From a virus (taxonomy: Duplodnaviria > Caudoviricetes), in the IMG/VR virus record IMGVR_UViG_3300021400_000063: DNA of 64,000 bases. One strand, written 5' to 3'. How positions within the stretch are numbered: position 1 is the first letter of the stretch; every line of letters begins with the position of its first letter. The notes under the pieces were generated by a model. That model saw only the letters and a list, made by a program, of their open reading frames with translations, was not told the origin of the DNA and ran no database searches. Of the stretch, positions 15,368-56,403 are shown one piece after another. The position numbers and the translations under genes are program-made.

Positions 15368-15381
15368 GACATTTAAATATA
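15368..15381 (+). promoter_or_regulatory. putative late promoter GACA-N6-TATA
   Basis: GACATTTAAATATA; the same motif recurs before more than 10 late/structural genes. Confidence 0.65.
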
Positions 15382-15399: not shown

Positions 15400-16134
15400 A
15401 TGGCTAAATTAACTAATGTAACACCAGATTTACCAGCTACAACTAATAAAATGGTTAATATCATTTCTAAAGAAACCTCAAATGGAACTGTACAAGTTTG
15501 TATGGAAGATGCTCAATATTATTATCTTCCATTTGACAAATCACCATTAGATTTATCAGATTCTAAAATTCGTGAAAAATTTATTAAATCTGTTGAAAAT
15601 AGAGTTAGAAGATCTAAACTTTATAAAGCTTATGTAGCATATCTCAAAGTAGATTGTAAGTTAGATCGATGTTCTATTTTTGGAAATATTAAATCTGAAA
15701 AAGGTGATAAAACTAAAATAGAAATGCATCATGGACCAATTTTTACATTGTATGATTATGTTTCTATTGTACTTGAAAAACATTTGCGAGAAAACGCTAA
15801 TGATATAAACACATTTGATATTGCAGCTGAAGTATTAGATTTACATAGACGAAAACTGGTACAAACTGTAATGTTATCGGAGACTGCTCATAAATCCATG
15901 GATAATCCTAAAATAGCACCATTCTTGTCACTTGATATGACTTTTGGTGATCTAGTAGGTTTTATTAAAGAATATGGGCAATATTTCTCTCCAAAAAATA
16001 GATCTGATCTTAAGAATTATTTTATTCATTATCAGACTAATTTGGAAAATAATAAATTAAATGTATTTAAACCTGTATTCACTCAATACAATATTAAATA
16101 CGTAACTTCTAAAGCGGAGATACCGAATATATGA
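15400..16134 (+). CDS. HNH-like protein, paralog of 4574..5323
   Basis: CSIF...IEMHHGPIFTLYDYV ... VMLSETAH. Confidence 0.55.
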   Translation: MAKLTNVTPDLPATTNKMVNIISKETSNGTVQVCMEDAQYYYLPFDKSPLDLSDSKIREKFIKSVENRVRRSKLYKAYVAYLKVDCKLDRCSIFGNIKSEKGDKTKIEMHHGPIFTLYDYVSIVLEKHLRENANDINTFDIAAEVLDLHRRKLVQTVMLSETAHKSMDNPKIAPFLSLDMTFGDLVGFIKEYGQYFSPKNRSDLKNYFIHYQTNLENNKLNVFKPVFTQYNIKYVTSKAEIPNI

Positions 16135-19106
16135 GTTTTGAGAACGTCTATCGCTCCGAAACCGGAGCCGCAGAAATTGAAAAGATAGCAGACTTTATTG
16201 GAAGTTTAGTTATCAAAAATAAATATGAAGCTAATAGAAAAGAAACTTCGGAATCTATAGCAAATTATTATGCATATTATGGTGCATATACTAAAACTGA
16301 TCATTTTAGTGATTATGATAAAGATGATCGAAGAAAATATAAAGAATATGTACATGTTTATTTATCTTCAGATAAATCTAAATCATATGTATATAATGAA
16401 TTAGTTTTAGATATGTTGACCGAATCTTCTTTTAAAGATTTAGAAGATAATAAAGATAAAGAACTTTATAAAGATTATTTAACAGCTTTACGAATATCTA
16501 GAGTTTATTTGTATGAAGAACGAAATGAATATTATAGACAGTTCATGGGAGTTCCAAATTCGAATGCTGAAATTGTTTATTTAATAAATATTGATAAGGG
16601 TGAAATGGGTTATAGTTTAATTGAAGATTATTCTACGCCTCCTGATCCATATACTCAATATTATTATTACAATGAAGAAGATAAATTATTTTATCCTCTT
16701 AATTTTTATTTAACAACAGGTTCATGGGCTCCAGCTTTAGCAATTCATGATAAACTTTATACAATTAATTTGGTTAAAGCTCATGATATTAATAGTACAG
16801 ATTATCCGTTGACATATTCGTATTATATACTTCAAGGTCATATTGATGAAGTAATTGAAAAATATCCTAATTATAATTATTTAAAATTTATTGGTGAATC
16901 TTATACACCATTTAAATTGAGAATGATGGGAAATTATGATATCATTAAATATAAAAAGAATATTTTATCTAATACAGAATTGACTTATTTTTTCAAAGCA
17001 TATAATAAAGCTAAAACTCAAGTTTTACTCGATTATATAGATGGATTTGATAGTAAACAACCATTGTATAATATTCTTATGATTGAAAATCTTTTGTATT
17101 ATACGATTATCAATTATTCAAATTCGTATATTGAAAAATATTCTTTAGGTATTTATACTGAAAAGAATCTTAATGATATTCTTAATTCACATGGATATTC
17201 TTCTTTAACTAAAATTAGTGATATAAACTTAAAAGAACGTGTTGTTAAAAATCTAAATGATTTGATTGCTAATAAAGGAAATAACTACGTTCTTAATCTT
17301 ATTCTTGAAAAAATTCTTGAAGATCCTAATGTACAATTAAAACGTTATTATCTTGAAAAGAAATATAGAACTGATGATGATGCTTCTATAAGTATTGATA
17401 CATCTAGAGGTTTGGAAAATTCTATAGATTTAGTATTTAGAGAAGTTTCTGCTACAGATGTAAATACTAAAACATCTGAAGATGTTATTCATGATTATGA
17501 TATTTTTGTTAATGAAGATAAATTATGGGGCGGCTGGTCTGAAGACGATACCAATGATTCAAAAGCTAGTAAAAAAGAAGTTCTTAAAAAAGAATTACTT
17601 GCATTGAACTTTAACTCAATCTTAACACGCTATATCACATTAACAAGAACTGTAGATATTTTGGAATCACAACGTCAAATTAGAGATTTACTTTATTTGA
17701 TGTTAAAATTCTTTGATCAAAATGATTCTCCAGAATTTTTTGAAATTAAAACGGCTTTTAATTCTAATATATCTGTTCCACCAGCCGCATTATTTGGTGC
17801 AATGTGTTGGTTACAACAAATGAAGAATTATTCAAATCCTGATGTCATTATTAAGGATAATTGTGTTATAAATTCTACAGCAGTTTTTAGACAACTTGGA
17901 AGATTTGCTCTAGAAAAAACTTCATTTGAGAATAAAGTTATTGTAGACGGTCGAGTTGTAACACAATATGATATTTCTCCAGAAATTGCAACTTGGAAAG
18001 TTGTAGATTTTATTAAAGAAAATCAAGAAGATTTTAAAGATTTCTTTGTTGGAGTTGATGGTGAAAGGATTGAAACTGTAAGGATTAAAGATATTGTATC
18101 ATTGGATAAAATTCCAGCTGATGGATATAAACATCTCGATGTAGATGATGAAGATCTTTCAGATTATATGACTATATACAGATTCTATTCTAATGGACAA
18201 CAGCTTGGTGAATTCACAAGTGATACTACATTTGAAGAATTGGTAGATGACTATAAAAATCAATATCCTAATCTTCTAAAACGCATTACTTGGAAATTAA
18301 GAAATTCTTATGATTTTAGAGAATTCCAAGCCTGGACTTATATTCTTAATCAATCTAGAACTAATAATAGTATTTATTTCATTTTTAGAAATTGTACCAC
18401 ATTTACTGAATATTTAACTAGTTTAGAAGCTGATAAACTTAAAGTTTATATACTTGACAAATTAGGAAATAATCCTACTAATGTAGAAATAACAAAGTTA
18501 CAAAATGAAATTATCGATGTATTTAAGCAATGGGTAAACAATTCGTTTTCAAAATTAGTATATGAAGCTGAAAATTCAGATACATCTGGTTCATCTTCAG
18601 ATTATATCAATGATATGATCATTTTGTTTAATGAATTCTTATCGGTATTCTCAGAACTTTATTCCATCGATTATCGTTATACATTTGGTGATAAATCTTA
18701 TGAAGGTTTGGATATTCAATTATTCTATAATCCGATTAATGTTTGGCAAACGTATAACCCGGTTGATAAAATTGAATTACGCGAATATATTAAATCTTCT
18801 ATGAATGTAGATTTAGATAGTGATAAATTTGAATTATTATATACATACTATTTAAATGCTTTCAATATTATTTACGATAATATAAATAATGATATGAAGA
18901 TTGAAAATTCAACAATTCAATATATAGATGACCAATTTAAATATGATCCAATATTAACACAATGTACTTGTAAAATATTAGATTTATTTGAAATGAGACA
19001 TCAATTATCTATAAATATTAAATCGTCTGTTACCGATTCGATAAGTTTATCGGATGGTAAATTAACGATTGAAACTTCTACAGGAGAAACTAAAAATTAT
19101 GCGTAA
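16131..19106 (+). CDS. large virion structural protein (baseplate-type, phiKZ/AR9-like)
   Basis: 991 aa; 'SLVIK', 'ERNEYYRQFMG.P', 'ANKG' recall conserved jumbo-phage structural proteins; in a late operon. Confidence 0.55.
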   Translation: MSFENVYRSETGAAEIEKIADFIGSLVIKNKYEANRKETSESIANYYAYYGAYTKTDHFSDYDKDDRRKYKEYVHVYLSSDKSKSYVYNELVLDMLTESSFKDLEDNKDKELYKDYLTALRISRVYLYEERNEYYRQFMGVPNSNAEIVYLINIDKGEMGYSLIEDYSTPPDPYTQYYYYNEEDKLFYPLNFYLTTGSWAPALAIHDKLYTINLVKAHDINSTDYPLTYSYYILQGHIDEVIEKYPNYNYLKFIGESYTPFKLRMMGNYDIIKYKKNILSNTELTYFFKAYNKAKTQVLLDYIDGFDSKQPLYNILMIENLLYYTIINYSNSYIEKYSLGIYTEKNLNDILNSHGYSSLTKISDINLKERVVKNLNDLIANKGNNYVLNLILEKILEDPNVQLKRYYLEKKYRTDDDASISIDTSRGLENSIDLVFREVSATDVNTKTSEDVIHDYDIFVNEDKLWGGWSEDDTNDSKASKKEVLKKELLALNFNSILTRYITLTRTVDILESQRQIRDLLYLMLKFFDQNDSPEFFEIKTAFNSNISVPPAALFGAMCWLQQMKNYSNPDVIIKDNCVINSTAVFRQLGRFALEKTSFENKVIVDGRVVTQYDISPEIATWKVVDFIKENQEDFKDFFVGVDGERIETVRIKDIVSLDKIPADGYKHLDVDDEDLSDYMTIYRFYSNGQQLGEFTSDTTFEELVDDYKNQYPNLLKRITWKLRNSYDFREFQAWTYILNQSRTNNSIYFIFRNCTTFTEYLTSLEADKLKVYILDKLGNNPTNVEITKLQNEIIDVFKQWVNNSFSKLVYEAENSDTSGSSSDYINDMIILFNEFLSVFSELYSIDYRYTFGDKSYEGLDIQLFYNPINVWQTYNPVDKIELREYIKSSMNVDLDSDKFELLYTYYLNAFNIIYDNINNDMKIENSTIQYIDDQFKYDPILTQCTCKILDLFEMRHQLSINIKSSVTDSISLSDGKLTIETSTGETKNYA

Positions 19107-30125: not shown

Positions 30126-33100
30126 ATGGGTATTAATACAAACTCATTTGAAAATTATAAAAATACTGTTGAAGCATCTGAAAAAGGTGGTTTTTTAAGT
30201 AAATTAAAAGGCTTCGGATTAGATTCACTTGGTGGTCTTGACTCATTTATGGGAAAAGACATCATAAATGCAAATAAATTATTAAAATCTTTTAAAGGAT
30301 TTAATCTCTCTGATATTCTTTCGAATTTAGGAGGATTTTTCCAAAACTTAGCGCTTTCAGCATTAGATATGTTGAAAGATATGGGTATGGATGCCCTGAG
30401 ACAACTTCAAAATGCTTCTATAAACTTTGCATCAAATCTTGTAGAAGATTTGTATAATAATGTACGTTCGATGATGTATATTCCTGATAATGCTTTTGCT
30501 TTAACATTACAAGGTTTATATGAAGCTGGTGCAGATTTAGCATATAACGATCATTATATTCGTTCTTCAGCTTTACAAAGAGATTGGACTATAAGTTTAA
30601 AATTTATAGATGATCAATATGGTATAGATTATAATATTCGAGATTATAAAGATCTTGAAAAAGATTTAGCTATATGTGCTGAACATTCATGCGTTAATAA
30701 TTTGTACTATATATTCCGTAAAATATACGATCAATTAAATGATGTTCGATCTGATATAGTTGTATCAGAAACATCTTTAAAACCATATTCAAATACTATT
30801 AAAGGTTTCAAGCTTGTATCTTATGATGAAATACCTAATTGTGATAATCTTTATGTACAAATTGGTGAAGAAAAAACTAAAATTAATAAAGATACTGAAC
30901 AAGGTATAAACTTTATTCAAAATCATAAAGATATGGATTATTATACTGAAACTATAATCGATTATGAAGGTATAGCTAATGGTTTGTATTTAGGTTATAA
31001 CTATGAAACAATTGAAACTAAAAACGATGTTGAAGCTAAATATAATGCTTATTTAGAGAATGTTAAACTTGTAAAAAATATAGAACGTTTAATGTTAGTT
31101 TATTTTAAATCATTAATAGTTCATAGTTATACATATTTAAATGCTTCTTCTGTACAAAAATTCTTTTCTGATTTTGATACTGTTCTTTTACCTAAGTATT
31201 ATGGAAAAACTGATGATAAATATAATGGAACATACGCTTTTACACAAAATGATTGTTTAATAATGATGCCTGATTATAAAGGCAATGATGTTACTAAAAG
31301 TGATATGTATACCCAAGAATTATTAACTCAAAAAAATAATGAATATATCGCTGTATCAGGTGCTAGATCAGAAGCTTCTAAAGCTGCTATGGAAGCATTG
31401 GAAGCTAAAAATGCTGCTAAAACAACTACAGCTTCTGCAGCAGAAGCTGGTACCACTGGAGCTATAGCTAAAATTAAAGCATTTAGAGCAAATGCAATGG
31501 AAGCCGTAGCAAAAAATCAAAATGTTTCATATACAGCTAATATTAAGAATGGAATATCTAAAACACTTCAAAATAATTCTAACAGTTTATGGAATAGATC
31601 TGGAAGTGGAATTAATGCTAAACAAGATAGTAAACGTATTTCTTCTATGTATGATCGTGATGTTGTTAAAAAATATGAACTTGTTGGAAGTTTATCTGAT
31701 GCATTGGATGAGATAGATTTTTTAAATAAAGATACTGAATATATTGTTTTAAGAAATAAAAATATTAAACAAATTTATGCTCTTTTAGCTAATCCTACTA
31801 TTTATGGTAATAATAGAATGGTTAATGATTATTTCTATAAACGTTGTCAGATAAAAACAATGAATACTTTAAATCAATCATTAGCTAAGGCTGGAAGTAT
31901 TTTAGGTTCATCTTACGCTGTACAAGCGCTATTTGATCTCGAAAATGCTGTTGATTCATCAGCATATGTATATCTTAAGAAAGTAGAAAACTATCTTTTA
32001 AATCCTAAAGAACACTCATATTATGGTATGGACACTATGTTTAGTTCTGGCAATAATATGTGGACACAGTTTGGTGATTATTTTAAACAAGCATATTCCT
32101 GGGACGATTCTATAAGCGATGATCCTGAATTAGAATCTATTATTGAAAAACTTTCAGAAGTTTCAAATACAACATCTGACACTTCTTCAAAAACTAGTGT
32201 ATCTGAAATTGATCCTATAAAAGATTTAACTTCTGAAAATGGTGCTAATGGTGAAACTTATGCAGAAATATTAAATCAATTAGATTCTGAAAATACTGCA
32301 AAATTATATGTTGATAATGTTGTTAGATTTATGTCTGAAATTTCGATGTTGGATCTTAGAGATATGTTAGTTAAATATCTTACAGCTTTCTACAAATATA
32401 TGAAAGCTAGAGATTATGAACCTGATACATATTTCGAAACTCTTATTAAATCAATGTCTGGTATTGACGGAATTACACATTATGATGATTTAAATTCCAA
32501 AGTATTTAGTAAATCTACACATAAAACATTATTAGCTAATGGTAAATTCTTAGTATCTATATATGCTTTAAAGAATTCTTACAAATATTTCTTAGAGAAT
32601 GAAAAAGATACAAATAAAGAAGAACTTACTAAAATTTACAATCTTGTATTTGCTATGGGTTCAGCAGATATTCAAATGAGTGGAACTATAACAGGATTGT
32701 ACAAATTTGATAAAGAGCAATTAAATTCTCTTGTAAAAAGAAATTTCTTTACATCTATAGACCATCTTAAATCTATAAATGATAAAACTAAACCACTTAT
32801 TAAAACAGCTCCAAGATATAAAGATAATTTAACCAAATCATTTAACTATAAATTCGATTTACGTGGTATATCAGGTTATAGTTTAGATAATGATAGAATT
32901 TTATATGTACCAGAAAATAGTACTGGAGATTGGAATTCTATAGGTGTAAGTAATGATAAAGAAATTGGATCTTTCTTTTGTAAAAGTAATATAAATGGTG
33001 ATGGTAACGGAATTTATAGAAGAACTTATGAAGGAACTACTTTAAATAGAATTGATGTAGTTTCTAATTCTGGAACAAAAATCACAGATAGAGAATTCTT

Positions 33101-35531
33101 TGTAATTACATTTGACGATCATGGTGCTGTATATTTTGGTTTAAATGATATGGATACTAATAAAAACTCTATTTCAGAGACATTATATGTATACGATCAA
33201 ACTAATAACAGAATAATAGGTGTATCTGGTTTTACTGATAATCCTAAAGATTATTCATTTAAAATAGATGTATCACACAAATTATTAATTATAGCATCTA
33301 AAAAGAATAAAGGATGTTATTATACAACATTAAATACTACGACATGTTCTAGATTATCTAGTACAGGAAGTAATCATTATTTTGTAAAATTGGAAGATAA
33401 TTCTTTACTTGTTTGTCCAAAGGATTCAAAATCTGGAATAGGTTATTTTGATATCAGTGGTAATTATGTTAATACTTGTGATTTACCAGATAATGTTTCT
33501 GCTATAACTAGAGTTAAACCGGTTGTAACTGAAACAATTGTTAATGTTCAATCATCATCAACAGATTCTTCACAATCATCTTCTAGTAGTGGAGAGTCAA
33601 GTCAACCTATAATAACTTCTACACCTATGAATATTTATGGTGCTTTAATTAGTACTAATATTGGAGTTATTCATTTATTGGCTCTAGCACAAGTAGATAC
33701 AACCACAGGTGAAACTACAGGTTCTAAAACATTATCAATGGGTAAGACTTATTCATTTGTAAGTGGAAATAGTCCATGTTATGTTTATAATAACATGAAA
33801 GTTATAGGTGTTAAAGATAATTCTAAGTTTATATGTAAAACTATAGAAGCTAAAGAACCAATGACTATTACATCTACAAGTGTTTTATTATCAAGTGAAT
33901 TGTTTAAATTTGGTAATGAAATAGAAATTTTTAATCCATCATATCCTTCAGAAACTTATAATGTAGATTATATGTGTGATACTGATGATGGAATTTATAC
34001 AATCTTAACTAGAACTGATTCAGATACTAAAGAATTATATTTTATTCCTTATAAAAATGATACTGAAATAATGTATTTGATTCGTTCAGAAATAGCCAAT
34101 ACTGTTACTAATGTGGATGTAATAGATACTATTAATATTTCATCTTCTAAAAAACCAGTAATCATAATTTATCCAAATAAATCATTAGATTTCATTTCTA
34201 TCACAACAACATCTTCTTCTATAAGTCCTTCAATAGTTGATTCTTATTTTAAAGATATAGATGATGAAATACCTTCTGATGATACATTGATTGTAAAACA
34301 AAGCGATTATGATTGGGAAAATATATCTGTTCCAAATGATAATAACATTTATATTCAAAATAAAAATTATGGTGTTATTTTATTTAAGAATGGTGTATCG
34401 ATTCATAAATTAATGAATTATTCTAATTTAACAACTGGTGATATTACTAAAGCTGATTTATTATTTGATTATCAAATAGTTAAAGCTAAAAGTATTACAT
34501 TATTTGCAAATAAATCTTCTGGAAGCAAATATGTTAAAAATGGATATGGATTATTTAAATCTGTAAATGATGGTGTAAATTATCAATATGCCGATACTTC
34601 ATCATATCATGATGGTGATATTGGAAGCATGGCTTATGATAAACATCACAATTGTATCTATTTTGGAACTTATCGTGATAAAACAATTTTTAATTATGAT
34701 TTCCTAGCAACAATTGCTGCTTTTGATATAGATGCTTATATATCTCAATTATCATATTATGAACTTAGTAAACTAGCTAAAAATCTAATGGAATCTTCAT
34801 CAACAACAATTAATGAAGGAATTCTTGATTTATTATCTAGTAAAAATGAAGATTTATCTTTTACTTATACAATTGATGAATTATTAACTGATGTAATCGA
34901 TTTATCTCTAAATACTCAAGAAAGCTGTCAAACATCATTGATGAGTTCTACATTATTTACAGAGTTAACTAATTATAAAACTGCTACTGAATTATTTGAT
35001 GATGTTACAAGTGACAATTTTAATGATGATATGACAAAAGATTTTATCACTAGTTATCCTGGAGAAATATCTATTGAAAATGAATTATTTCCTACAGATG
35101 TAGAAGATTTTTCAATAGGAGATATTGATGATATCGATAATGATGGTGATATAGATCAAGATGATTTAAATTGGTATCAAGCATTATTAAATGGTGGAGA
35201 AATCGATACAAAACTATCATTAAACGATTGGTTTAATAATTTAGCTAATGGTGTATATGGTAATGGAATGGGTAGTGTTCTATCATTAAGATTAACATAT
35301 GATAAACGAATAAAATATTTTGCCACATTACGAGCTAATAAATCACATTTCTTAATAAGTGGTAAATCATTATCTTCTGATGAAGTTGATTCTGATGTAG
35401 AAGGTCCTAATTCTATTATCGACCCTGCAACAGATCCAGAATCTCCAGAATATAAATGGTATCATAATACCGATTTTGCTTCTAAAGATTTTGAAAATTC
35501 TGATGAAAATGGTGAATTCTCTTGGCAATAA
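30126..35531 (+). CDS. very large probable virion protein (helical N-half, beta-propeller-like Ser/Thr-rich C-half; tail/baseplate-associated)
   Basis: About 1800 aa; ATG at 30126 after GGAG; late promoter; beta-strand-rich repeats; DxDxDG Ca-binding motif near the C-terminus. Confidence 0.6.
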   Translation: MGINTNSFENYKNTVEASEKGGFLSKLKGFGLDSLGGLDSFMGKDIINANKLLKSFKGFNLSDILSNLGGFFQNLALSALDMLKDMGMDALRQLQNASINFASNLVEDLYNNVRSMMYIPDNAFALTLQGLYEAGADLAYNDHYIRSSALQRDWTISLKFIDDQYGIDYNIRDYKDLEKDLAICAEHSCVNNLYYIFRKIYDQLNDVRSDIVVSETSLKPYSNTIKGFKLVSYDEIPNCDNLYVQIGEEKTKINKDTEQGINFIQNHKDMDYYTETIIDYEGIANGLYLGYNYETIETKNDVEAKYNAYLENVKLVKNIERLMLVYFKSLIVHSYTYLNASSVQKFFSDFDTVLLPKYYGKTDDKYNGTYAFTQNDCLIMMPDYKGNDVTKSDMYTQELLTQKNNEYIAVSGARSEASKAAMEALEAKNAAKTTTASAAEAGTTGAIAKIKAFRANAMEAVAKNQNVSYTANIKNGISKTLQNNSNSLWNRSGSGINAKQDSKRISSMYDRDVVKKYELVGSLSDALDEIDFLNKDTEYIVLRNKNIKQIYALLANPTIYGNNRMVNDYFYKRCQIKTMNTLNQSLAKAGSILGSSYAVQALFDLENAVDSSAYVYLKKVENYLLNPKEHSYYGMDTMFSSGNNMWTQFGDYFKQAYSWDDSISDDPELESIIEKLSEVSNTTSDTSSKTSVSEIDPIKDLTSENGANGETYAEILNQLDSENTAKLYVDNVVRFMSEISMLDLRDMLVKYLTAFYKYMKARDYEPDTYFETLIKSMSGIDGITHYDDLNSKVFSKSTHKTLLANGKFLVSIYALKNSYKYFLENEKDTNKEELTKIYNLVFAMGSADIQMSGTITGLYKFDKEQLNSLVKRNFFTSIDHLKSINDKTKPLIKTAPRYKDNLTKSFNYKFDLRGISGYSLDNDRILYVPENSTGDWNSIGVSNDKEIGSFFCKSNINGDGNGIYRRTYEGTTLNRIDVVSNSGTKITDREFFVITFDDHGAVYFGLNDMDTNKNSISETLYVYDQTNNRIIGVSGFTDNPKDYSFKIDVSHKLLIIASKKNKGCYYTTLNTTTCSRLSSTGSNHYFVKLEDNSLLVCPKDSKSGIGYFDISGNYVNTCDLPDNVSAITRVKPVVTETIVNVQSSSTDSSQSSSSSGESSQPIITSTPMNIYGALISTNIGVIHLLALAQVDTTTGETTGSKTLSMGKTYSFVSGNSPCYVYNNMKVIGVKDNSKFICKTIEAKEPMTITSTSVLLSSELFKFGNEIEIFNPSYPSETYNVDYMCDTDDGIYTILTRTDSDTKELYFIPYKNDTEIMYLIRSEIANTVTNVDVIDTINISSSKKPVIIIYPNKSLDFISITTTSSSISPSIVDSYFKDIDDEIPSDDTLIVKQSDYDWENISVPNDNNIYIQNKNYGVILFKNGVSIHKLMNYSNLTTGDITKADLLFDYQIVKAKSITLFANKSSGSKYVKNGYGLFKSVNDGVNYQYADTSSYHDGDIGSMAYDKHHNCIYFGTYRDKTIFNYDFLATIAAFDIDAYISQLSYYELSKLAKNLMESSSTTINEGILDLLSSKNEDLSFTYTIDELLTDVIDLSLNTQESCQTSLMSSTLFTELTNYKTATELFDDVTSDNFNDDMTKDFITSYPGEISIENELFPTDVEDFSIGDIDDIDNDGDIDQDDLNWYQALLNGGEIDTKLSLNDWFNNLANGVYGNGMGSVLSLRLTYDKRIKYFATLRANKSHFLISGKSLSSDEVDSDVEGPNSIIDPATDPESPEYKWYHNTDFASKDFENSDENGEFSWQ

Positions 35532-38724: not shown

Positions 38725-38763
38725 TATATATTATTATAATGAATAGAATTTGTATGAATTCTA
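38725..38763 (+). promoter_or_regulatory. early-type promoter 17-mer plus leader hairpin
   Basis: TATATATTATTATAATG, then TAGAATTT-gtat-GAATTCTA. Confidence 0.65.
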
Positions 38764-39193: not shown

Positions 39194-41452
39194 ATGGCTC
39201 AGAATATAATTGATGCTACTGGTACATCATTAGCTAATACAGCAAAATTCTTCTTTTACGTTAAAGGTTCCAAAGATTATCCTATTGATCAGGTAGTTTC
39301 TGATAAATTCGGATATGATAATACTGGTGATGGAACATTCGCACAAACAGCTATCTTTGATACAAGTATTAAAGATATATTGATTAGAACTACTAATCCT
39401 AAACAGATTGATAATTTGTATAGCTTGTACAGCGATTCATCAAATGGTATTTCGGCCAAAAGTGAAAGAACAGGACTTAATATCCGTAATGATAGATCTC
39501 AAGAATATCTATCATCTATTATTATTGATAATGGTAAGGTAATGTCTAATGAAGTTACCGAACCAACACGTTTTGTTGATCATATCGATCCTAACTATAC
39601 AACTTTCGATGGTAAAACTTATACATTAGAAAATGTAAAATTATTTAAATCTGGTGGAAAAACAGAAAATAATATTTATCCTCTTGAACATATTTTTTGG
39701 CAGAAGATTTATACCATTTGTGAATTTATTAAGAAGTATGAATCTGAAATTATCAATATGTATGTTGATAGTTCGCTTAAATATCCATCATTTATTAGAA
39801 ATGCTTCAGATGAAAAACTTTCAGCTTGGTATGGTAGTTCTGAAAATGTAGCTGCCATGAAACGTGATCTCGAAGCTGAATCTGAAATCGGAAGATTTAT
39901 TTCACTTTTCATTGGTAAATGTACAGATAATAGTAAATATTTCCAAACTAAATATGAATCTGGTGAGGAAGTTATTGCTGGTGGTGCTATTAAATATAAT
40001 CCTTTCCGTTGGAAGGAAATGACTGGAGACGATACTCTTCGTCATACAGATGGTGAAGCTCTCTCTATTGATGAAGAACAGGAAATGTTCTATAATTCTG
40101 AAGTTCTTAATCTTCAGTATGTTTATGGAACTGCTAATTTTGAACCTTCATCTAAAGAAGGACGTATTAAGAAATTCTCTTTTGAAGTAAGGGCTAGTTA
40201 TACAGATACTATTTCTAAGACTTGGGTAATTGTTTGTTATCTCGATCCTGATGCATTTGTTAATTCATCTAGTGTAGCACAATATGCTGTTTACACATAT
40301 AATGATGAAGATATGGATGGTGTTGAAGGAGCAGCTGATGATAATTATGGAATTTATGATAACGATTATGCTAATGTTGCATCTGAATCAGCAACACTTA
40401 AAAATAATTTCGTTTCATCTCAATCTGAATTCCAGAAAAATATAATTCAAGCTATTACAGATATTATGAAGGATGGAACTTATAAATATTATCAAGAGTT
40501 CCAGACTTTACGTGTTACACCTACTATCGATTCTGAAAATAAAAAGAACTTAGTTTGGGATGCTGTAAATCATTCCATTATGCAGAAATTCTATATTTTC
40601 TACGGTAGTGAATCACAAGCTCCTACATTAGCACAACAGATTGCTGCTGTAAAAGATTATATTAAGCGTCTCCATACAAGTGGTCATTGTCATCCAATGC
40701 AATATGATGATGACGGAAATATTACTTATATTGGACATAGTGATACAGATCTTGATATGTTCTTATCTAAGATGTATCCTGAATTGTTCACTACAACAGA
40801 AGTTTATATTATTCCAACTAACACATTGATTAATAGTCTTGGCGACAGATTCGATCCAGATAACTATTTTGGAACTGCTAATATTGAAGATGCTCACGAT
40901 CAGATTAAAAATCTTAATGGTGTATTTAGTTTGTTCGAATACGCTTCAAACGGAAGAGCTTCTCTCGTATCTTCTGGAGAAAAACAGAAAAATCTTCCTC
41001 TTGAATTTATTCACATTGGTTCTCTTAATGGACAGGAAACTTCTGGACAAAATAGTTTGGATTTAAAATATCCAATGCCTTTGATTTGTACAGCTTTTGG
41101 TACAACAGATGCTAGGCCACTTACAAGTCTTTCAGGTTTCGCTAATTACGAAACTAAGATTTTTAATTATAATCAATCTAATATGAACACATTCAATTAT
41201 GCTGATAAGTTACAGATTGTTCTTATTAAGCTTATGGAAGCAATGTTTACAAACGATAATAATGCAAGTTATTATTCATCAATTGCTGGTGTTAAAATTG
41301 ATTACGAAATCGATAGAAATGCTGATAGTGATTTACAAACTAGTGGTTATAAGAAAAATGTTGCTAAGTTTGTCATCAACAATGTTAACTTTACAGTTAT
41401 TGCTCATAAGGGTAAAGCTTTTGCTAAATCTTTAAATTATGTAGAAGTATAA
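39194..41452 (+). CDS. probable virion structural protein
   Basis: 752 aa; late promoter, AAGGAG SD; 'YPELF..TE..IIP' segment. Confidence 0.55.
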   Translation: MAQNIIDATGTSLANTAKFFFYVKGSKDYPIDQVVSDKFGYDNTGDGTFAQTAIFDTSIKDILIRTTNPKQIDNLYSLYSDSSNGISAKSERTGLNIRNDRSQEYLSSIIIDNGKVMSNEVTEPTRFVDHIDPNYTTFDGKTYTLENVKLFKSGGKTENNIYPLEHIFWQKIYTICEFIKKYESEIINMYVDSSLKYPSFIRNASDEKLSAWYGSSENVAAMKRDLEAESEIGRFISLFIGKCTDNSKYFQTKYESGEEVIAGGAIKYNPFRWKEMTGDDTLRHTDGEALSIDEEQEMFYNSEVLNLQYVYGTANFEPSSKEGRIKKFSFEVRASYTDTISKTWVIVCYLDPDAFVNSSSVAQYAVYTYNDEDMDGVEGAADDNYGIYDNDYANVASESATLKNNFVSSQSEFQKNIIQAITDIMKDGTYKYYQEFQTLRVTPTIDSENKKNLVWDAVNHSIMQKFYIFYGSESQAPTLAQQIAAVKDYIKRLHTSGHCHPMQYDDDGNITYIGHSDTDLDMFLSKMYPELFTTTEVYIIPTNTLINSLGDRFDPDNYFGTANIEDAHDQIKNLNGVFSLFEYASNGRASLVSSGEKQKNLPLEFIHIGSLNGQETSGQNSLDLKYPMPLICTAFGTTDARPLTSLSGFANYETKIFNYNQSNMNTFNYADKLQIVLIKLMEAMFTNDNNASYYSSIAGVKIDYEIDRNADSDLQTSGYKKNVAKFVINNVNFTVIAHKGKAFAKSLNYVEV

Positions 41453-50800: not shown

Positions 50801-50898
50801 CTGAATTCAAACCTATAATTGTTACACCTGATGGTAAAGTAACAACTAATGACGGTTTGAATCAAGGTATTGGTAATGATGAAGCTGGTGGTTTCTAA
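47887..50898 (+). CDS. probable portal protein (phiKZ-like large portal)
   Basis: 1003 aa; 'ALIEGAKP', 'VIPV..AGRHVGYY', 'YIP' motifs recall jumbo-phage portals; late operon. Confidence 0.6.
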   Translation: MPKSNNSNLDILNNDANLSIYADHLGLTPQFIQDNRNQLDRIEKMVSKSLKNTDEDDPNYVFNTMKQLQNLTKETFIADSYDTSLNRNFGGMYGDPTTRDGFRMVYSDNDNKEDLETYNFHASIFSSYRNLVSEYRNVARLIPTVYRCADMKARDILAINEITKRSVSNVYVPSTLNPDDNDPSVLSENPINERIEKEILDRYSIEDRLPRYLRTALIEGAKPVVVFPYTDIMEMAKISMRNFSQKYADYKFRTSANSTEAYEDVISDYHSREHRLIPNFNDPKYKIMSTESVDGEEKLTFNKKNYTDLRDSVIDKFVSKEDLNEYMARGIEDVTNNIERVRNERLFDIYGSNVINKTEKVNEVNEKFREFQDKVKVDGSLSEHFKEQIFNAVKTIDSNIEFYDQSELAMGVSINNFRRLMQMSAYHENPKAGLKAFNARLQDEKRLKERDKNYDQDPIVKDGMEIDNGPKSVLDEFASDFSPNEYSLLNDCLIKEYDAEDVIPVIVAGRHVGYYIIETSPYTGNVESVNKRNCNFTDMFLNLGINNDFAISPSPATSGSFGAGVQGVPMGGIAAVSDLPSVGITGAGSMALGAGLDIAGFDVGVAGDDAIRRNNIMKKIMFNVLKQKIHRHDIEDDETFMDTIMALIRDGAIVQNRIKIMYIPEKYMCYFTPGLDGNGIPESFMKNCLFTCYEKILVNMNNIMTRLTRTGQRDKITVNVGKAKNFGYSIRAIENALTTRKLNVESPFTSLSRVLKSASLSETIVVPIYDGEQLFEYEDISQHNMIDQQDDLEQRLENDIVTQLKCPVTITNPYQEEDFASLAASRNAEYRFDLIKLQGVFGNIATKFIKLLIVGSGLYKKIKDGNKDFSLSEILVRFAPPESLNMQNANNLFATVQSYIDNIIGIAINPDDNTEVTNSTRFKFKQKLYQQLMPGIGLDKYIRLAQNLRPEANKTAIENRINRSVNDQIVNTEFKPIIVTPDGKVTTNDGLNQGIGNDEAGGF

Positions 50899-50934
50899 AT
50901 AATTAAACAAGAGGGAATCTATTCCCTCTTGTTT

Positions 50935-50951
50935 TATATATTATTATAATG
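50935..50951 (+). promoter_or_regulatory. early-type promoter 17-mer
   Basis: TATATATTATTATAATG directly after the terminator at 50905-50935. Confidence 0.65.
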
Positions 50952-50962
50952 AGGTGGTAAAT

Positions 50963-51460
50963 ATGAAAAGATTATCAAAAAATTATGATGTTAGATTGAG
51001 TTCTAACCTTATTGAAAGATCTAAATATTTAGATCTTTCAAAATCTTTCGGATGGCCTGTAATACATATTCTTGGTCTGCGTTATAAGGATATCACAATG
51101 AATGGTTTGACCGAAGATAATAAAATCTCTTCGGAAGACCTAGTAGGATTTTCTAAATCTGTTTATGAAAACAGTAAGAAATTTAGAAAATTCTGCAAAC
51201 AATACTTCAAGAGAGTTAACAAACAACTCTCTGAAGAAGCTCCAGATGGATGGTTGAAATATCATCTTTCTGGTGTTAAAAACCCACTTGCAGTTTATGC
51301 TGAACTTGGTGGGGTTGTTGAATATGATTGTAAGAGAAAGTCTTTCATAAAGACTCTTTTACAAGCTATTCGAAACTTTTTCAAAGTTTTATGGAATTTC
51401 TATAAGGCTTTGATTAGAAAAATCATCTATAGTTTGAAACCTGTAAAAGTTTCATATTAA
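50963..51460 (+). CDS. hypothetical basic protein (early cassette)
   Basis: ATG at 50963 after GAGGTGG; amphipathic C-terminal helix. Confidence 0.75.
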   Translation: MKRLSKNYDVRLSSNLIERSKYLDLSKSFGWPVIHILGLRYKDITMNGLTEDNKISSEDLVGFSKSVYENSKKFRKFCKQYFKRVNKQLSEEAPDGWLKYHLSGVKNPLAVYAELGGVVEYDCKRKSFIKTLLQAIRNFFKVLWNFYKALIRKIIYSLKPVKVSY

Positions 51461-51516
51461 TTGATGATTTTAAAAAAGAAGGAGAAATTTTAGTATCCTT
51501 CTTTTTTTTCTAAATT

Positions 51517-51530
51517 GACATTTCTATATA
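51517..51530 (+). promoter_or_regulatory. putative late promoter
   Basis: GACATTTCTATATA. Confidence 0.65.
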
Positions 51531-51559
51531 TTACGATTAAAACATTAGGGATAACAATT

Positions 51560-52009
51560 ATGAATTTGGCTAAAATTTTTAGTTTCGAATCATATGAATT
51601 TACACCTAAATACGCTTATAGTACTATTAAAGATTTTACAAATAAGCATAAAAACCAAAATTCATTTGATAAATTAAAAGATTCAATGTTATCCTTAGAG
51701 CACATAAAACAAGATTCGTATGTCTTGCAAATAAATAGTGGTAATTGGGATAGATCAGTTGAATCCTATTTCTTTTCGATTTATTCTGATAAATCGGGTT
51801 ATTATCTTAGAACTGATGATAATAAAATTAAACATTTTCATAATAAAGAAAATGCTTTAAAATATAATTTAGCTAAGATAATGACTAATAAATATTCTTG
51901 TGAAAAGATTCGTTATTTTTGTTATGAATTTAATGAAATGGATGAATCTCTTGAAAGTTACGACTATATAAATTATGCCTATGATTATGGTAGGAGGATT
52001 ATTATATAA
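51560..52009 (+). CDS. hypothetical protein with leader MNLAKIFSFE
   Basis: ATG at 51560 after AGGGA, downstream of the late promoter. Confidence 0.7.
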   Translation: MNLAKIFSFESYEFTPKYAYSTIKDFTNKHKNQNSFDKLKDSMLSLEHIKQDSYVLQINSGNWDRSVESYFFSIYSDKSGYYLRTDDNKIKHFHNKENALKYNLAKIMTNKYSCEKIRYFCYEFNEMDESLESYDYINYAYDYGRRIII

Positions 52010-52764
52010 TGAAAGTTTCTGCTGAACAGTTTAAAAAAATACGTAAAAAGTATGAAGAAAATATTTACAAATTAATGGATGATATTGATCCTTCAGGATT
52101 TAATGCTGATACTTATAGAATAGCTTTTGCTAAAATGTCAGATAAACAATTCATTGATTTGATGAAGAAATATATAGAGCAGGATGATTTAAATCTTTTT
52201 ATAGATATCAATCAACTTGAAAAGAAAAAGTCTGATAATATGACTCTTGAAAAGATTAAAGCTATTGCTGATAAATGGAAGATTAGTTTATTCGAATATG
52301 TATTTATGCCTTTTAGAAATCCTAGAGGTAAACCAATGTGTACATTAACAAAAGTACCAATTATTTACTGTCCGATTAGACGATTCTTCCAACAGATGTT
52401 GCAACATAAAAACTCTATTTCTAATAGTAGCGATCATATTAATCCATTGACTGGACAGGTTGTACAAGAAGATAAAACTGCTTCTACTACAAACGTTCAG
52501 ACTTATGCGTTAGCTGCAACAAATCAAATTAATGCTCTTAAAGAATTTCTTGGTCCTCGTGCAGATGATCAAATAAGTAAACAACAAATGTTGAATACTA
52601 TTGTATCAACTGGTGATGTTAGATTATCTGATTTGGATATTCGAACTCACAATAAACAGGCAGTTAATACTACAGAAGTTTTCTGTAAAGCTGCTGGTCT
52701 AGAGGTTAAATTCTCTGGAAATGATTACGGTAATATAGATTTTGGTGACAAAGATGATCAATAA
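52009..52764 (+). CDS. rpoB: RNA polymerase beta subunit, small C-terminal fragment (virion RNAP, phiKZ gp149-like)
   Basis: 'MSDKQF', 'LFEYV', 'RRFFQQMLQHK', 'NPLTGQV', 'LKEFLGPRADD' match the end of beta. Confidence 0.7.
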   Translation: MKVSAEQFKKIRKKYEENIYKLMDDIDPSGFNADTYRIAFAKMSDKQFIDLMKKYIEQDDLNLFIDINQLEKKKSDNMTLEKIKAIADKWKISLFEYVFMPFRNPRGKPMCTLTKVPIIYCPIRRFFQQMLQHKNSISNSSDHINPLTGQVVQEDKTASTTNVQTYALAATNQINALKEFLGPRADDQISKQQMLNTIVSTGDVRLSDLDIRTHNKQAVNTTEVFCKAAGLEVKFSGNDYGNIDFGDKDDQ

Positions 52765-53215
52765 TAATAGATTATTTTCATATGAAGTTATGAATACCGA
52801 ACCTATAACTATATTAAATCCTACCGGTCTTTCTATTGGTAATTTTAATAAACCTAGTGATAAACTGATACTTGCTGTAGATTTCGATGGTACAATCGTT
52901 GATGATGCTTTTCCAAAAATTGGTAAAGTTAAACCGAATGCTATTGAATCTATAAAGTATTTACAATCCTTTGGAGTTCAAATTATCTTATGGACTTGTA
53001 GAGATGGTGAATATCTTAAACAAGCATTAGCATTTTTATTGGCTAATGGTATTAAAGTTACAAAAGCTAATGATAATTCAAATAGTATAAATTTCAAACC
53101 TTCGAAAAAGATTTATGCCGATTATTATTTAGACGATAGAAGTTTTCCAGGATTTCCTGGTTGGAATATATTTATTGACGCTTTTAAAAACGCTTACGGA
53201 GTAAAGAATGATTAA
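52754..53215 (+). CDS. HAD-superfamily hydrolase with leader MINNNRLFSYE
   Basis: AVDFDGT motif I, 'WTCR', 'KKIYADYYLDDR'. Confidence 0.85.
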   Translation: MINNNRLFSYEVMNTEPITILNPTGLSIGNFNKPSDKLILAVDFDGTIVDDAFPKIGKVKPNAIESIKYLQSFGVQIILWTCRDGEYLKQALAFLLANGIKVTKANDNSNSINFKPSKKIYADYYLDDRSFPGFPGWNIFIDAFKNAYGVKND

Positions 53216-53864
53216 TAATGATAAAATATTTTCTTGTGAAAATTATAATTTGAAGAATGAACAGTCGCAAGAAGGAATTAAACAAATATTCGTCGGAATA
53301 GGAATATTTTATTTAGCTTTATTCATTTTATCTAAAATTCAAAATAAAATTAAAAAACATAATGAAGCTAAAGTAAAACAATTTACTAAAGATAATAAAT
53401 TAAAATTAGAAAAATTGAAAAAATTTGTCGATAGTTGTTTATTAGAATTTAATGAAATTTGTAAATACATTGAAAATAATTGTGAACAAATAGATTATGA
53501 TAAATTGTTAAATTATGATGATATAATTTCTCCATTCGAAAAGATTATATCAAAAAATAAAAATATTAATAATTCGATTATTCTATATCTTAATAAACAT
53601 GCTAAAAAGATATCATTATATCCACAATTTTACGATCATAATTCAATCGATTATGATGGAAAAGAATTTAAAGATTTAATGAATATCAAATTACCAAAGT
53701 TTACTAAAGAACTTTGTAATAAAAAATATAAATATTTTAAAATAATTTCTAATGAAAAAGAAATTATCGATAATATTTGTGATGGTAGATCTACAATAGA
53801 ACTGAAGGTAGATTACTCAAATTTAGATATTAGTTTACTATCAGATTTTATTGATAAGGATTAA
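53208..53864 (+). CDS. hypothetical protein with TM helix and leader MINNDKIFSCE
   Basis: 218 aa; GGAG SD; hydrophobic residues about 27-42 after 'SQEG'. Confidence 0.75.
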   Translation: MINNDKIFSCENYNLKNEQSQEGIKQIFVGIGIFYLALFILSKIQNKIKKHNEAKVKQFTKDNKLKLEKLKKFVDSCLLEFNEICKYIENNCEQIDYDKLLNYDDIISPFEKIISKNKNINNSIILYLNKHAKKISLYPQFYDHNSIDYDGKEFKDLMNIKLPKFTKELCNKKYKYFKIISNEKEIIDNICDGRSTIELKVDYSNLDISLLSDFIDKD

Positions 53865-53867
53865 TAT

Positions 53868-54623
53868 ATGATTAATAATGATAAAATATTTGCTACCGAA
53901 ATGAATGTTTATGCCTGTTCTCAAGGTCTTTTTGGACCAGATGAAGGTGTTGAAACAGTTGGGGATTTTCAACTTGGTGATTGTAATAATGGTCATGAAG
54001 ATCCTGATTTGGATAAAGCTGAAGAATCTAATGAAAATTTAATTTTCACAATTGATGATGAATGTTATAAATTAAAAGAATTTGAAAATGGTAAATATAA
54101 TATTTTATTTGTAACTGGTTTTTCTGGTTCTGGTAAAACTACATTAGGTGGAGAATTGTCTAAAAAATATCATTGTAGTTTAATACAATTGGATGATATT
54201 ATGACTCCAGATATGTTTACTGATTCAGATTTTAATAAAATGGATCCTATAATTTGTGAATTCTTTAAAGAAAATGAATATGCTAAATTACATAGAAATG
54301 AACACAAATGTTACGATTTAGCTGAAGAATTTATTAATTATGTTATGAATAAACAATTATCTCATAAAATAATAGTTGAAGGCGTTCAAATTTGGTTATC
54401 ATTAAATGATAAAGATAATATTATTAATTATAAACAACTTAAAACTTATCCTATAATTTTCAAAGGAACTGCTGGTATAACTAGTACGATTCGTGCTCTT
54501 AAAAGAGATAAAAAGAAACGTACTATGTATAAAATAGCTCATAAATACTCTTATATATTTACAGATAATTTGAAAATTGAAAAATTAAGAAATATGATTA
54601 AATCTGAATATGATAAACACTAA
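53868..54623 (+). CDS. P-loop (nucleotide kinase-like) protein with leader MINNDKIFATE
   Basis: Walker A GFSGSGKTT, 'LDD', 'IVEG'. Confidence 0.8.
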   Translation: MINNDKIFATEMNVYACSQGLFGPDEGVETVGDFQLGDCNNGHEDPDLDKAEESNENLIFTIDDECYKLKEFENGKYNILFVTGFSGSGKTTLGGELSKKYHCSLIQLDDIMTPDMFTDSDFNKMDPIICEFFKENEYAKLHRNEHKCYDLAEEFINYVMNKQLSHKIIVEGVQIWLSLNDKDNIINYKQLKTYPIIFKGTAGITSTIRALKRDKKKRTMYKIAHKYSYIFTDNLKIEKLRNMIKSEYDKH

Positions 54624-54687
54624 ATAATAAACTTTTGTGGTTATGCCACAAAAGTTTATATATTATAATAATGAAGAGGAGATAAAT

Positions 54688-55986: not shown

Positions 55987-56403
55987 ATGAAATTTATTTT
56001 CGATCAAAAAACAAATAGTTTTCAAATGAAACTTGAACCTGAGGAATTAGAATTAGCTAAAACTAATCCTGAAAGTTTTAAAGCTTTATTAGAACAACAA
56101 AATAAAGCTAGAGAAGCTATAGCTAATAATCTTATCGAACAAATTAAAGAACAGAACAAAAGTCGATTGGAAACTGAAAAAATTCATATTGCTGAAAGAG
56201 AAGCTACTCGAAAAGCTGAATTCGAAGAACGTGAAATTAAACGTAAAGCTGAATTCGAAGAACGTGAGCAGATACGACAACAAGAACTTGAATTGGAACG
56301 TTTAAATGTTCAAAAATCTCAACTTGCTTGGGATAGAATCATTTATGGTGGAGAAGTTATATTGGATAAAGTTCTTCCAGATCAAACATCTAGTAGTTTT
56401 TAA
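55987..56403 (+). CDS. coiled-coil hypothetical protein (early cassette)
   Basis: 138 aa; internal duplication of RKAEFEERE. Confidence 0.75.
   Translation: MKFIFDQKTNSFQMKLEPEELELAKTNPESFKALLEQQNKAREAIANNLIEQIKEQNKSRLETEKIHIAEREATRKAEFEEREIKRKAEFEEREQIRQQELELERLNVQKSQLAWDRIIYGGEVILDKVLPDQTSSSF
56212..56267 (+). repeat. in-frame tandem duplication (23-nt identical core, 33-nt period)
   Basis: AAAGCTGAATTCGAAGAACGTGA at 56212 and 56245. Confidence 0.85.

Follow-up and report, generated by a model that had tools for sequence, protein, structure and literature searches.

Positions 51560-54623 of a 64,000-nt stretch of Caudoviricetes DNA (IMG/VR virus record IMGVR_UViG_3300021400_000063; the whole stretch is referred to here as the window) include four genes that begin with closely similar short leader peptides on otherwise unrelated proteins. 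The nearest described counterpart is the capsid targeting sequence (CTS) of phage T4, reportedly the subject of work by Mullaney and Black in 1996: a peptide of about 10 residues, found at the N-termini of the unrelated proteins IPI, IPII, IPIII and Alt, that ends in Glu at a protease motif and is removed by gp21. The T4 CTS has been reviewed (PMC9026906, PMC3012670), and gp21 itself, with LIE-9 near its own N-terminus, has been proposed to have a CTS-like propeptide (PMC9026906).

A second set of related systems is found in giant phages of a lineage with both virion and non-virion split RNA polymerases (RNAPs), whose S80 proteases include phiKZ gp175, 201phi2-1 gp268 and SPN3US gp245 (PMC5694885, PMC7411985, PMC10052503). 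The published specificities are S/A/G-x-E for phiKZ and A-x-E, with Ser preferred at P1', for SPN3US (PMC5694885, PMC10052503). phiKZ gp93 is cut at SLE-13, SPN3US gp53 and gp54 have identical 15-residue N-termini with AXE/SXE (PMC5694885, PMC10052503 for both), and the SPN3US ejection protein gp47 has a propeptide followed by a transmembrane (TM) segment (PMC5694885).

The locus in the window resembles both. As in T4, a short N-terminal peptide ending in Glu, here at a putative protease motif, is common to otherwise unrelated proteins of one phage, and a matching motif is found near the N-terminus of the protease, which here has the gp21 fold. It differs from T4 in the motif ([LI]-x-E there, F-[SAG]-x-E here), in the phage (phiKZ/AR9-like with split RNAPs, not T4-like), in the cargo (small basic internal proteins there; an HAD phosphatase, a nucleoside monophosphate (NMP)-kinase-like protein and TM proteins here), in the longer, 56-residue pro-module of one cargo protein, and in being known from sequence alone. 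With the phiKZ-like systems it shares an S80-related protease, the split RNAPs, a cleavage logo, predicted in this case, in which P3 is small, P1 is Glu and P1' is preferably Ser, and redundant sites in the pro-regions. However, published propeptides in that group are mostly 111-254 residues long, with only gp45 and gp225 at about 20-24, whereas the pro-regions here have 8-56 residues (leaders 8-11, HAD phosphatase about 35, kinase 56); and the shared N-terminus that links paralogs in SPN3US here links non-homologous proteins. The concept is established for T4 and has been discussed for giant phages. What is particular here is the AR9/phiKZ-like lineage with its S80-type protease, a very short tag common to protease, scaffold-like protein and enzyme cargo, and a cassette boundary that is exact to the base.

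The most economical reading, and the one preferred here at a probability of roughly 0.65, is that the prohead protease removes the leader, a propeptide like the T4 CTS, and that the locus itself is a plastic site for cargo genes. The leader, in its general form M-x(1-6)-[ILM]-[FY]-[SAG]-x-E, would be a short N-terminal propeptide marking proteins for the prohead interior. Tagged proteins would bind the prohead core, and the phage's own gp21/gp175-type serine protease would then cut after the Glu. The cargo locus at 51560-54623 would be transcribed late, plastic in evolution and centered on the gene of a virion-RNAP subunit; the tag is borne by its HAD phosphatase, its NMP-kinase-like protein, a membrane protein and a small protein rich in [SAG]-x-E sites. 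Capsid entry, leader cleavage, presence in the virion and ejection into the host are what we infer from the evidence below.

The leaders read MNLAKIFSFE (gene A, start at 51560), MINNNRLFSYE (gene B, 52754), MINNDKIFSCE (gene C, 53208) and MINNDKIFATE (gene D, 53868), so that the four open reading frames (ORFs) have the common start M-x(3-5)-[KR]-[IL]-F-[SA]-x-E. They belong to a single plus-strand transcription unit of five genes (51474-54659), in which genes B and C each overlap the stop of the gene before:

51474..51511, plus strand: hairpin followed by a T-run, at the upstream edge of the operon, ending the preceding unit; read directly, with a 12-nt loop, and not listed by the consensus scan
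51517..51534, plus strand: late-promoter-like motif GACA-N6-TATA, fitting the AR9 late consensus
51560..52009, plus strand: gene A, 149 aa, no known family; leader at residues 1-10 (51560-51589); rich in [SAG]-x-E
52009..52764, plus strand: homolog of a virion RNA polymerase beta-subunit fragment, 251 aa, without leader; phrog_3233, E 1e-40
52754..53215, plus strand: gene B, HAD-type phosphatase (DFDGT); 11-residue leader (52754-52786), then a linker of about 24 residues; Pfam Hydrolase_3, phrog_1238
53208..53864, plus strand: gene C, 218 aa; in order, leader (53208-53240), S-x-E site at residue 22 and TM segment
53868..54623, plus strand: gene D, P-loop NMP-kinase-like; Pfam AAA_18/AAA_33; folded domain from about residue 59
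53868..54035, plus strand: 56-residue pro-module of gene D, consisting of leader, conserved VYACSQGLFG core, acidic stretch and EESNE
54627..54659, no strand assigned: terminator-like hairpin at the end of the operon; AR9-type early promoter motif of the next gene at 54657-54673

A six-frame scan of the window for [KR][ILVM]F[SAG]xE gave four matches on the plus strand, all of them the leaders of genes A-D, and a single one on the minus strand, in a non-coding frame. Every leader ATG has a Shine-Dalgarno (SD)-like site 8-13 nt upstream, and the internal ATGs have none; the starts are not downstream of the motif, a refuting condition named in the initial annotation of this DNA. With the leaders trimmed off, pairwise comparison of A, B, C and D gave no significant similarity, and their families differ: HAD (B), P-loop kinase (D), TM protein (C) and no known family (A). 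All four leaders have the small residue at P3 and the Glu at P1 typical of S80 substrates, often with Ser at P1'. Further sites follow in gene C, where NEQSQE ends at residue 22 directly before the TM segment, and in the kinase (gene D), where EESNE ends at residue 56. In these respects the initial annotation, which had described four leaders in one late operon, non-homologous cargos beyond them, additional S-x-E sites and an identical 24-nt beginning of genes C and D, holds up. Against cultured phages, neither blastn with the operon nor tblastn with gene A found a match.

As a stand-in for the whole genome, IMG/VR contig 3300028048_000045 (G001; 276 kb, 99% complete, about 94% identical across the operon) was scanned, with a second relative, G002 (264 kb, about 60% protein identity), for comparison. 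The initial annotation had treated the tag as a feature of one operon and proposed a genome-wide search; that search extended it to unlinked genes, among them those of the prohead protease and of an acidic scaffold-like protein. In G001, [ILMV]F[SAG]xE occurs 22 times in ORFs of at least 60 aa; six of these occurrences lie within 10 residues of the first Met, four of them in the operon genes and two in unlinked genes of the opposite strand. Nine G001 proteins have an F[SAG]xE that ends no later than residue 14, where 1.9 would be expected (simple gene call; binomial p = 1e-4). Looser motifs such as [FYWMLIV][SAG]xE, which give many spurious N-terminal matches of the M-A-x-E type, were not used for counts. 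One of the nine, an RNase H, is not conserved in a relative and was set aside as probably due to chance. Beside the six tagged proteins named above, two to three others have leaders that vary more; two plausible members, proteins of 608 and 446 aa from one paralogous family, keep their leaders in G002. Overall, the tag of 8-11 residues is found on roughly eight genes of the phage.

The first unlinked gene (L007:10352-11230, 292 aa) encodes the prohead protease, which begins with MGNSNIFSCE and has a further site, F-S-I-E, with its Glu at residue 25. The protein matches phrog_207/3014 ("head maturation protease") and, by tblastn, T4-like gp21 and phiR1-37 g079; one homolog, 65% identical, scores above the Pfam threshold for Peptidase_S80 (the family of phiKZ gp175) and matches S77 (T4 gp21) as well. 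Residues H92, S151 and E25 are invariant in 30 homologs. The AlphaFold2 model has T4 gp21 (5JBL) as its only significant PDB match (E 4e-7, TM-score 0.67-0.69, root-mean-square deviation 2.8 Å), and residues 1-27 are predicted to be disordered. Homology and predicted fold together make a solid case that the phage encodes a gp21/gp175-type prohead serine protease. Across 65 homologs, the first of the N-terminal motifs keeps its I/L-F/Y-S core and has either Glu or Asp as its last residue, and the second site, at residue 25, always has Glu. This conserved N-terminal tag with an invariant F-S-x-E sets the protease apart from SPN3US gp245, where there is no N-terminal cleavage. The leader motif fits the published S80 cleavage logos, which are those of other phages' enzymes, and recurs both here, at the protease N-terminus, and in the scaffold-like protein. 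At its other end (about residues 200-292; homologs P0122-P0187) the protease has a separate domain of lower confidence, which by analogy may be the counterpart of the C-terminal propeptide that phiKZ gp175 and SPN3US gp245 remove from themselves.

The second unlinked gene (L007:2000-2824) encodes a protein of 274 aa, 27% of them acidic, that starts MAKGYFDIFSME. No other protein of the genome is as rich in [SAG]-x-E sites (5.5 per 100 aa, with a mean of 1.18; gene A is fourth), and in this the acidic protein resembles a scaffold or core protein that gets diced, as T4 gp22. The tags recur in G002, where the protease starts MKSSNIFSCE and keeps L-F-S-I-E, the next gene starts MSDLFSME, the leader of the acidic protein ends W-F-S-F-E before the same SDNDEID sequence, and that of the gene-A ortholog ends F-G-Y-E; no orthologs of genes B, C and D were found in G002. 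Two large proteins have starts that are reminiscent of the tag: a 991-aa virion structural protein (window 16131-19106) begins M-S-F-E in both G001 and G002, and a 1813-aa ORF (window 30126-35531) begins MGINTNSFE, with MADNPISFD in its G002 ortholog. These are possible, if weak, candidates for further very short leaders.

The HAD phosphatase and the kinase allow the leader to be compared with the domain behind it. Gene B belongs to the HAD superfamily both by its DxDxT motif (DFDGT) and by homology to a solved fold, PDB 2obb (E 1e-20), with the alignment starting at query residue 36; the Pfam Hydrolase_3 match is just under the cutoff. Six close homologs (52-97% identity) keep leader variants such as MIDLTNIFSVE and MIDNKNIFTTE, and among the close homologs the domain is the most conserved part (mean pairwise identity 72%), followed by the leader (55%) and the linker (38%). 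Distant HAD homologs (102-145 aa) and 2obb itself start a few residues before DFDGT, without a leader. Distant kinase homologs likewise lack one and begin exactly at the residue after EESNE-56; in one 67%-identical kinase, MYNYFSIE is fused directly to that same point. In the AlphaFold2 model of gene D, residues 1-58 have a predicted local distance difference test (pLDDT) score below 50 (disordered), and 59-251 are folded and NMP-kinase-like. Its Walker A sequence GSGKT is invariant among homologs, and Foldseek gave shikimate and adenylate kinases (E about 1e-3, TM-score up to about 0.57). In these comparisons the leader is an add-on that the distant homologs do without, in line with a check that the initial annotation had proposed. 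Codon by codon, the leaders in the window and G001 differ by three synonymous and no non-synonymous changes in gene C and by one synonymous change in gene D, and a third phage, L042, has further synonymous leader codons; judged by this pattern, the leader is translated and under peptide-level selection.

A kinase together with a phosphatase brings to mind a split form of T4 Pnkp, a reading that is unsupported here. The kinase fold is of the generic NMP/shikimate-kinase type with no specific polynucleotide kinase (PNK) signal, no PNK is among the top fold or sequence matches of gene D, and the sole link to a Pnkp-type pair is a weak match of gene B to phrog_415 (E 0.002). A "time-zero" role for the kinase and phosphatase is speculation.

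The leader is also where neighboring genomes part. Collinear homology between the window and G001 (94%) runs over 50932-53240 and resumes at 53846, and 53240 is in the last codon of the gene C leader. Both phages have NEQSQE and then a TM segment in gene C, but identity between the two cargos is only 23%. At least three other proteins carry the kinase pro-module (about 55-60 residues) at 93-100% identity in the part they share: a multi-TM protein of 290 aa, a protein of 177 aa and a kinase fragment with a zinc-finger-like tail fused to it. On a TM protein of 278 aa the module is about 78% identical. The junction with the cargo is always after E-E-S-x-E. There are also ORFs with no cargo, of 60 aa (L042:175-357) and 67 aa (protein P0189), which are the module plus 4 to 11 residues. 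In L042, which lacks both gene C and the kinase, the 60-aa ORF directly follows the HAD gene. An IMG/VR search with a degenerate DNA pattern of the leader had yielded L042 as its one true relative; the other seven contigs outside G001/L002 were chance matches. A scan of viral contigs with one alternative cargo (P0011-P0025) found only the kinase pro-module.

In these alignments cargo exchange breaks exactly at tag or S-x-E boundaries. With cargo swapped behind a kept leader and the module on varied cargos, the locus is comparable in behavior to the polymorphic loci for internal proteins in T-even phages, whose only conserved part is the CTS (PMC3012670); here as there, cargo genes are polymorphic among relatives and the leader is kept. 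The idea of a portable leader put forward in the initial annotation therefore stands as far as cassette breaks and exchanged cargos go, with the amendment that the portable unit of the kinase is the 56-residue pro-module and not just the first 11 residues.

Within the pro-module, the core VYA[CS]SQG[LM]F is kept in lineages about 60% identical (G002 at about 244196-244420 on the plus strand, L004:5837-6379, window 53901-53930). It is more conserved than the leader and always lies beside the virion-RNAP fragment gene, once as a 75-codon ORF. This core may be a docking epitope. In one relative (P0007/P0009, related to gene D) the kinase continues in frame through an S-N-E site, a VYASSIGMFG core and an acidic stretch into a further domain. 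From its sequence this looks like a protease-jointed polyprotein, with the pro-module core as an internal linker.

By gene content, the window is part of a phiKZ/AR9-like jumbo phage with split RNAPs. Its GC content is about 28% (26-32%), and PHROG matches include several split RNAP beta/beta' fragments, virion structural proteins, topoisomerase II, a UvsX-like protein, DNA polymerase and, weakly, a PhuZ-like tubulin. The beta-subunit fragment in the operon, which the initial annotation had recognized as virion-type, has its nearest cultured relatives in Bacillus phage Goe21 (AR9/PBS1 group), Listeria phage LPJP1, Yersinia phage phiR1-37 and Staphylococcus jumbo phages; several more distant tblastn matches, in phiR1-37, CR5, SPN3US and Erwinia phages, bear the annotation virion structural protein or RNAP beta subunit.

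The timing of the operon was judged from its promoter motif. The AR9 late promoter consensus is AACA-N6-TA/G (PMC5312081). On the plus strand of the window nACA-N6-TATA occurs 21 times, and 11 of these copies sit 15-75 nt upstream of gene starts, a zone that makes up 4.7% of the window; the genes so preceded include 44341 (virion structural), 21006 and 46190 (RNAP subunits) and 51560. By analogy with AR9 it is reasonable to regard the operon as late-transcribed, in agreement with the late promoter first proposed for it. Late-type motifs are located at 15369, 20969, 39158, 42253, 44309, 46160 and 51518. A second recurrent intergenic motif, TATATATTAT-N6-G, equals the AR9 early (virion RNAP) consensus (PMC5312081), and early-type motifs are located at 38727, 50937, 54659 and 55918. 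The phage may, like AR9, have a two-RNAP program and possibly deoxyuridine-containing DNA. The non-virion RNAP of Bacillus phage AR9 reads uracil-containing template DNA.

Two other regions were noted in passing. G001 has an extra 95-aa gene of an NPE-[AS]-F family (L001:6547-6834) between the gene of a 1003-aa virion protein and the next one; the window lacks it (50898-50963), a small indel between near-identical phages, and has a member of the same family at 55987. A 752-aa late gene at window 39194-41452, two genes downstream of the PhuZ-like gene, has no Pfam or PHROG match and no tblastn match among cultured phages; its product could be a diverged capsid or shell protein.

Several points weigh against the leader as a CTS-like propeptide. 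Many protease homologs have Asp, not Glu, at the end of their first N-terminal motif, and the gene-A homolog of one relative reads L-F-D-C-K, with no acidic P1; cleavage at the exact leader site is therefore not universal. Published phiKZ-like propeptides are mostly longer than 100 residues (PMC5694885), and at the locus of the AR9-like Bacillus phage Goe21, beside the homologous RNAP gene, no comparable leader was found. Membrane proteins and metabolic enzymes would be plausible, but at present hypothetical, capsid cargo.

The same observations bear on another possibility, that the leader is only a protease substrate site, for activation or release, and has no role in targeting, with incorporation by way of the VYACSQGLFG core or the mature domains. 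The match between leader motif and the cleavage logo of the protease family would be expected in that case, and the kinase pro-module does hold a more deeply conserved internal core, seen in relatives at about 60% identity. However, protease homologs retain the hydrophobic-F-S core where P1 is Asp, and the gene-A homolog retains L-F without a cleavable site; a core that is kept without a cleavable P1 argues for a function beyond cleavage. In T4, moreover, Asp at CTS position 10 stops processing but not targeting (PMC9026906). We consider a site for cleavage alone unlikely, and the retention of the I/L-F/Y-S core in protease homologs, even with Asp at P1, is a hint from sequence conservation of some role for the tag beyond that of a cleavage site.

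A signal for sorting, chaperones or degradation that has nothing to do with the capsid (phage-nucleus import, membrane targeting, N-degron) is improbable. The weak PhuZ-like tubulin match makes a compartmentalized infection possible, and two of the tagged proteins have TM segments, but the window's UvsX-like protein, topoisomerase II, DNA polymerase and other RNAP subunits are all untagged, the RNase H match is not conserved, and the prohead protease and scaffold-like protein, both of which act in the prohead, are in the tagged set. The peptide is also too short and too polar for a secretion signal. Still more improbable is an element acting at the nucleic-acid level (translation initiation or coupling, RNA structure, a recombination hotspot) with the peptide incidental to it. 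The first 24 nt of genes C and D are indeed identical, B and C overlap the preceding stops, and the cassette breakpoints are at the leader; yet the peptide is kept through the synonymous changes AAA/AAG, TTT/TTC, TGT/TGC, ACC/ACT and ATA/ATT and in homologs 52-85% identical, and the tag is also on unlinked genes on the other strand of G001. Given identical peptides and the codon usage of this phage, codon bias alone would produce the 24-nt identity with a chance of about 4%, which suggests recent shared ancestry (gene conversion) more than a DNA-level signal. On these grounds (a prohead-linked tagged set, a short and polar peptide, and synonymous leader changes), nuclear import, a secretion signal and an RNA element were all rejected as readings of the leader. 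Chance, or neutral paralogy of gene 5' ends without function, is scarcely credible: AT-rich sequence of low complexity and loose forms of the motif do give many spurious N-terminal matches, but the strict motif has just four plus-strand matches in 64 kb, all at adjacent N-termini, with genome-wide enrichment at p = 1e-4 and conservation in relatives at 50-60% identity.

A wider form of the CTS-like reading can be put forward only tentatively, and is somewhat doubtful as it stands. In an uncultured phiKZ/AR9-like clade, a modular address system, made up of the 8-11-residue tag and an optional pro-module of about 45 residues with a VYACSQGLFG docking core, might load enzymes and membrane proteins beside the virion RNAP, to be injected with the DNA. 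New cargo would be gained by recombination at protease sites, and with protease and scaffold bearing the same tag, one recognition event might organize the prohead core.

How ejection proteins are recruited in giant phages has been described as an open question (PMC5694885). If the leader is a capsid-targeting propeptide, T4-style "tag, load, clip" loading with a minimal peptide would operate in the phiKZ/AR9 branch of giant phages, where only long propeptides have been characterized so far, and delivery of enzyme cargo at time zero would be indicated. The proteins injected by uncultured jumbo phages could then be predicted by a sequence rule, and a very short peptide would be on offer as a candidate tag for the packaging of foreign proteins in these phages. 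From the breakpoints, which fall exactly at the tag, it can be seen how such loci gain new cargo.

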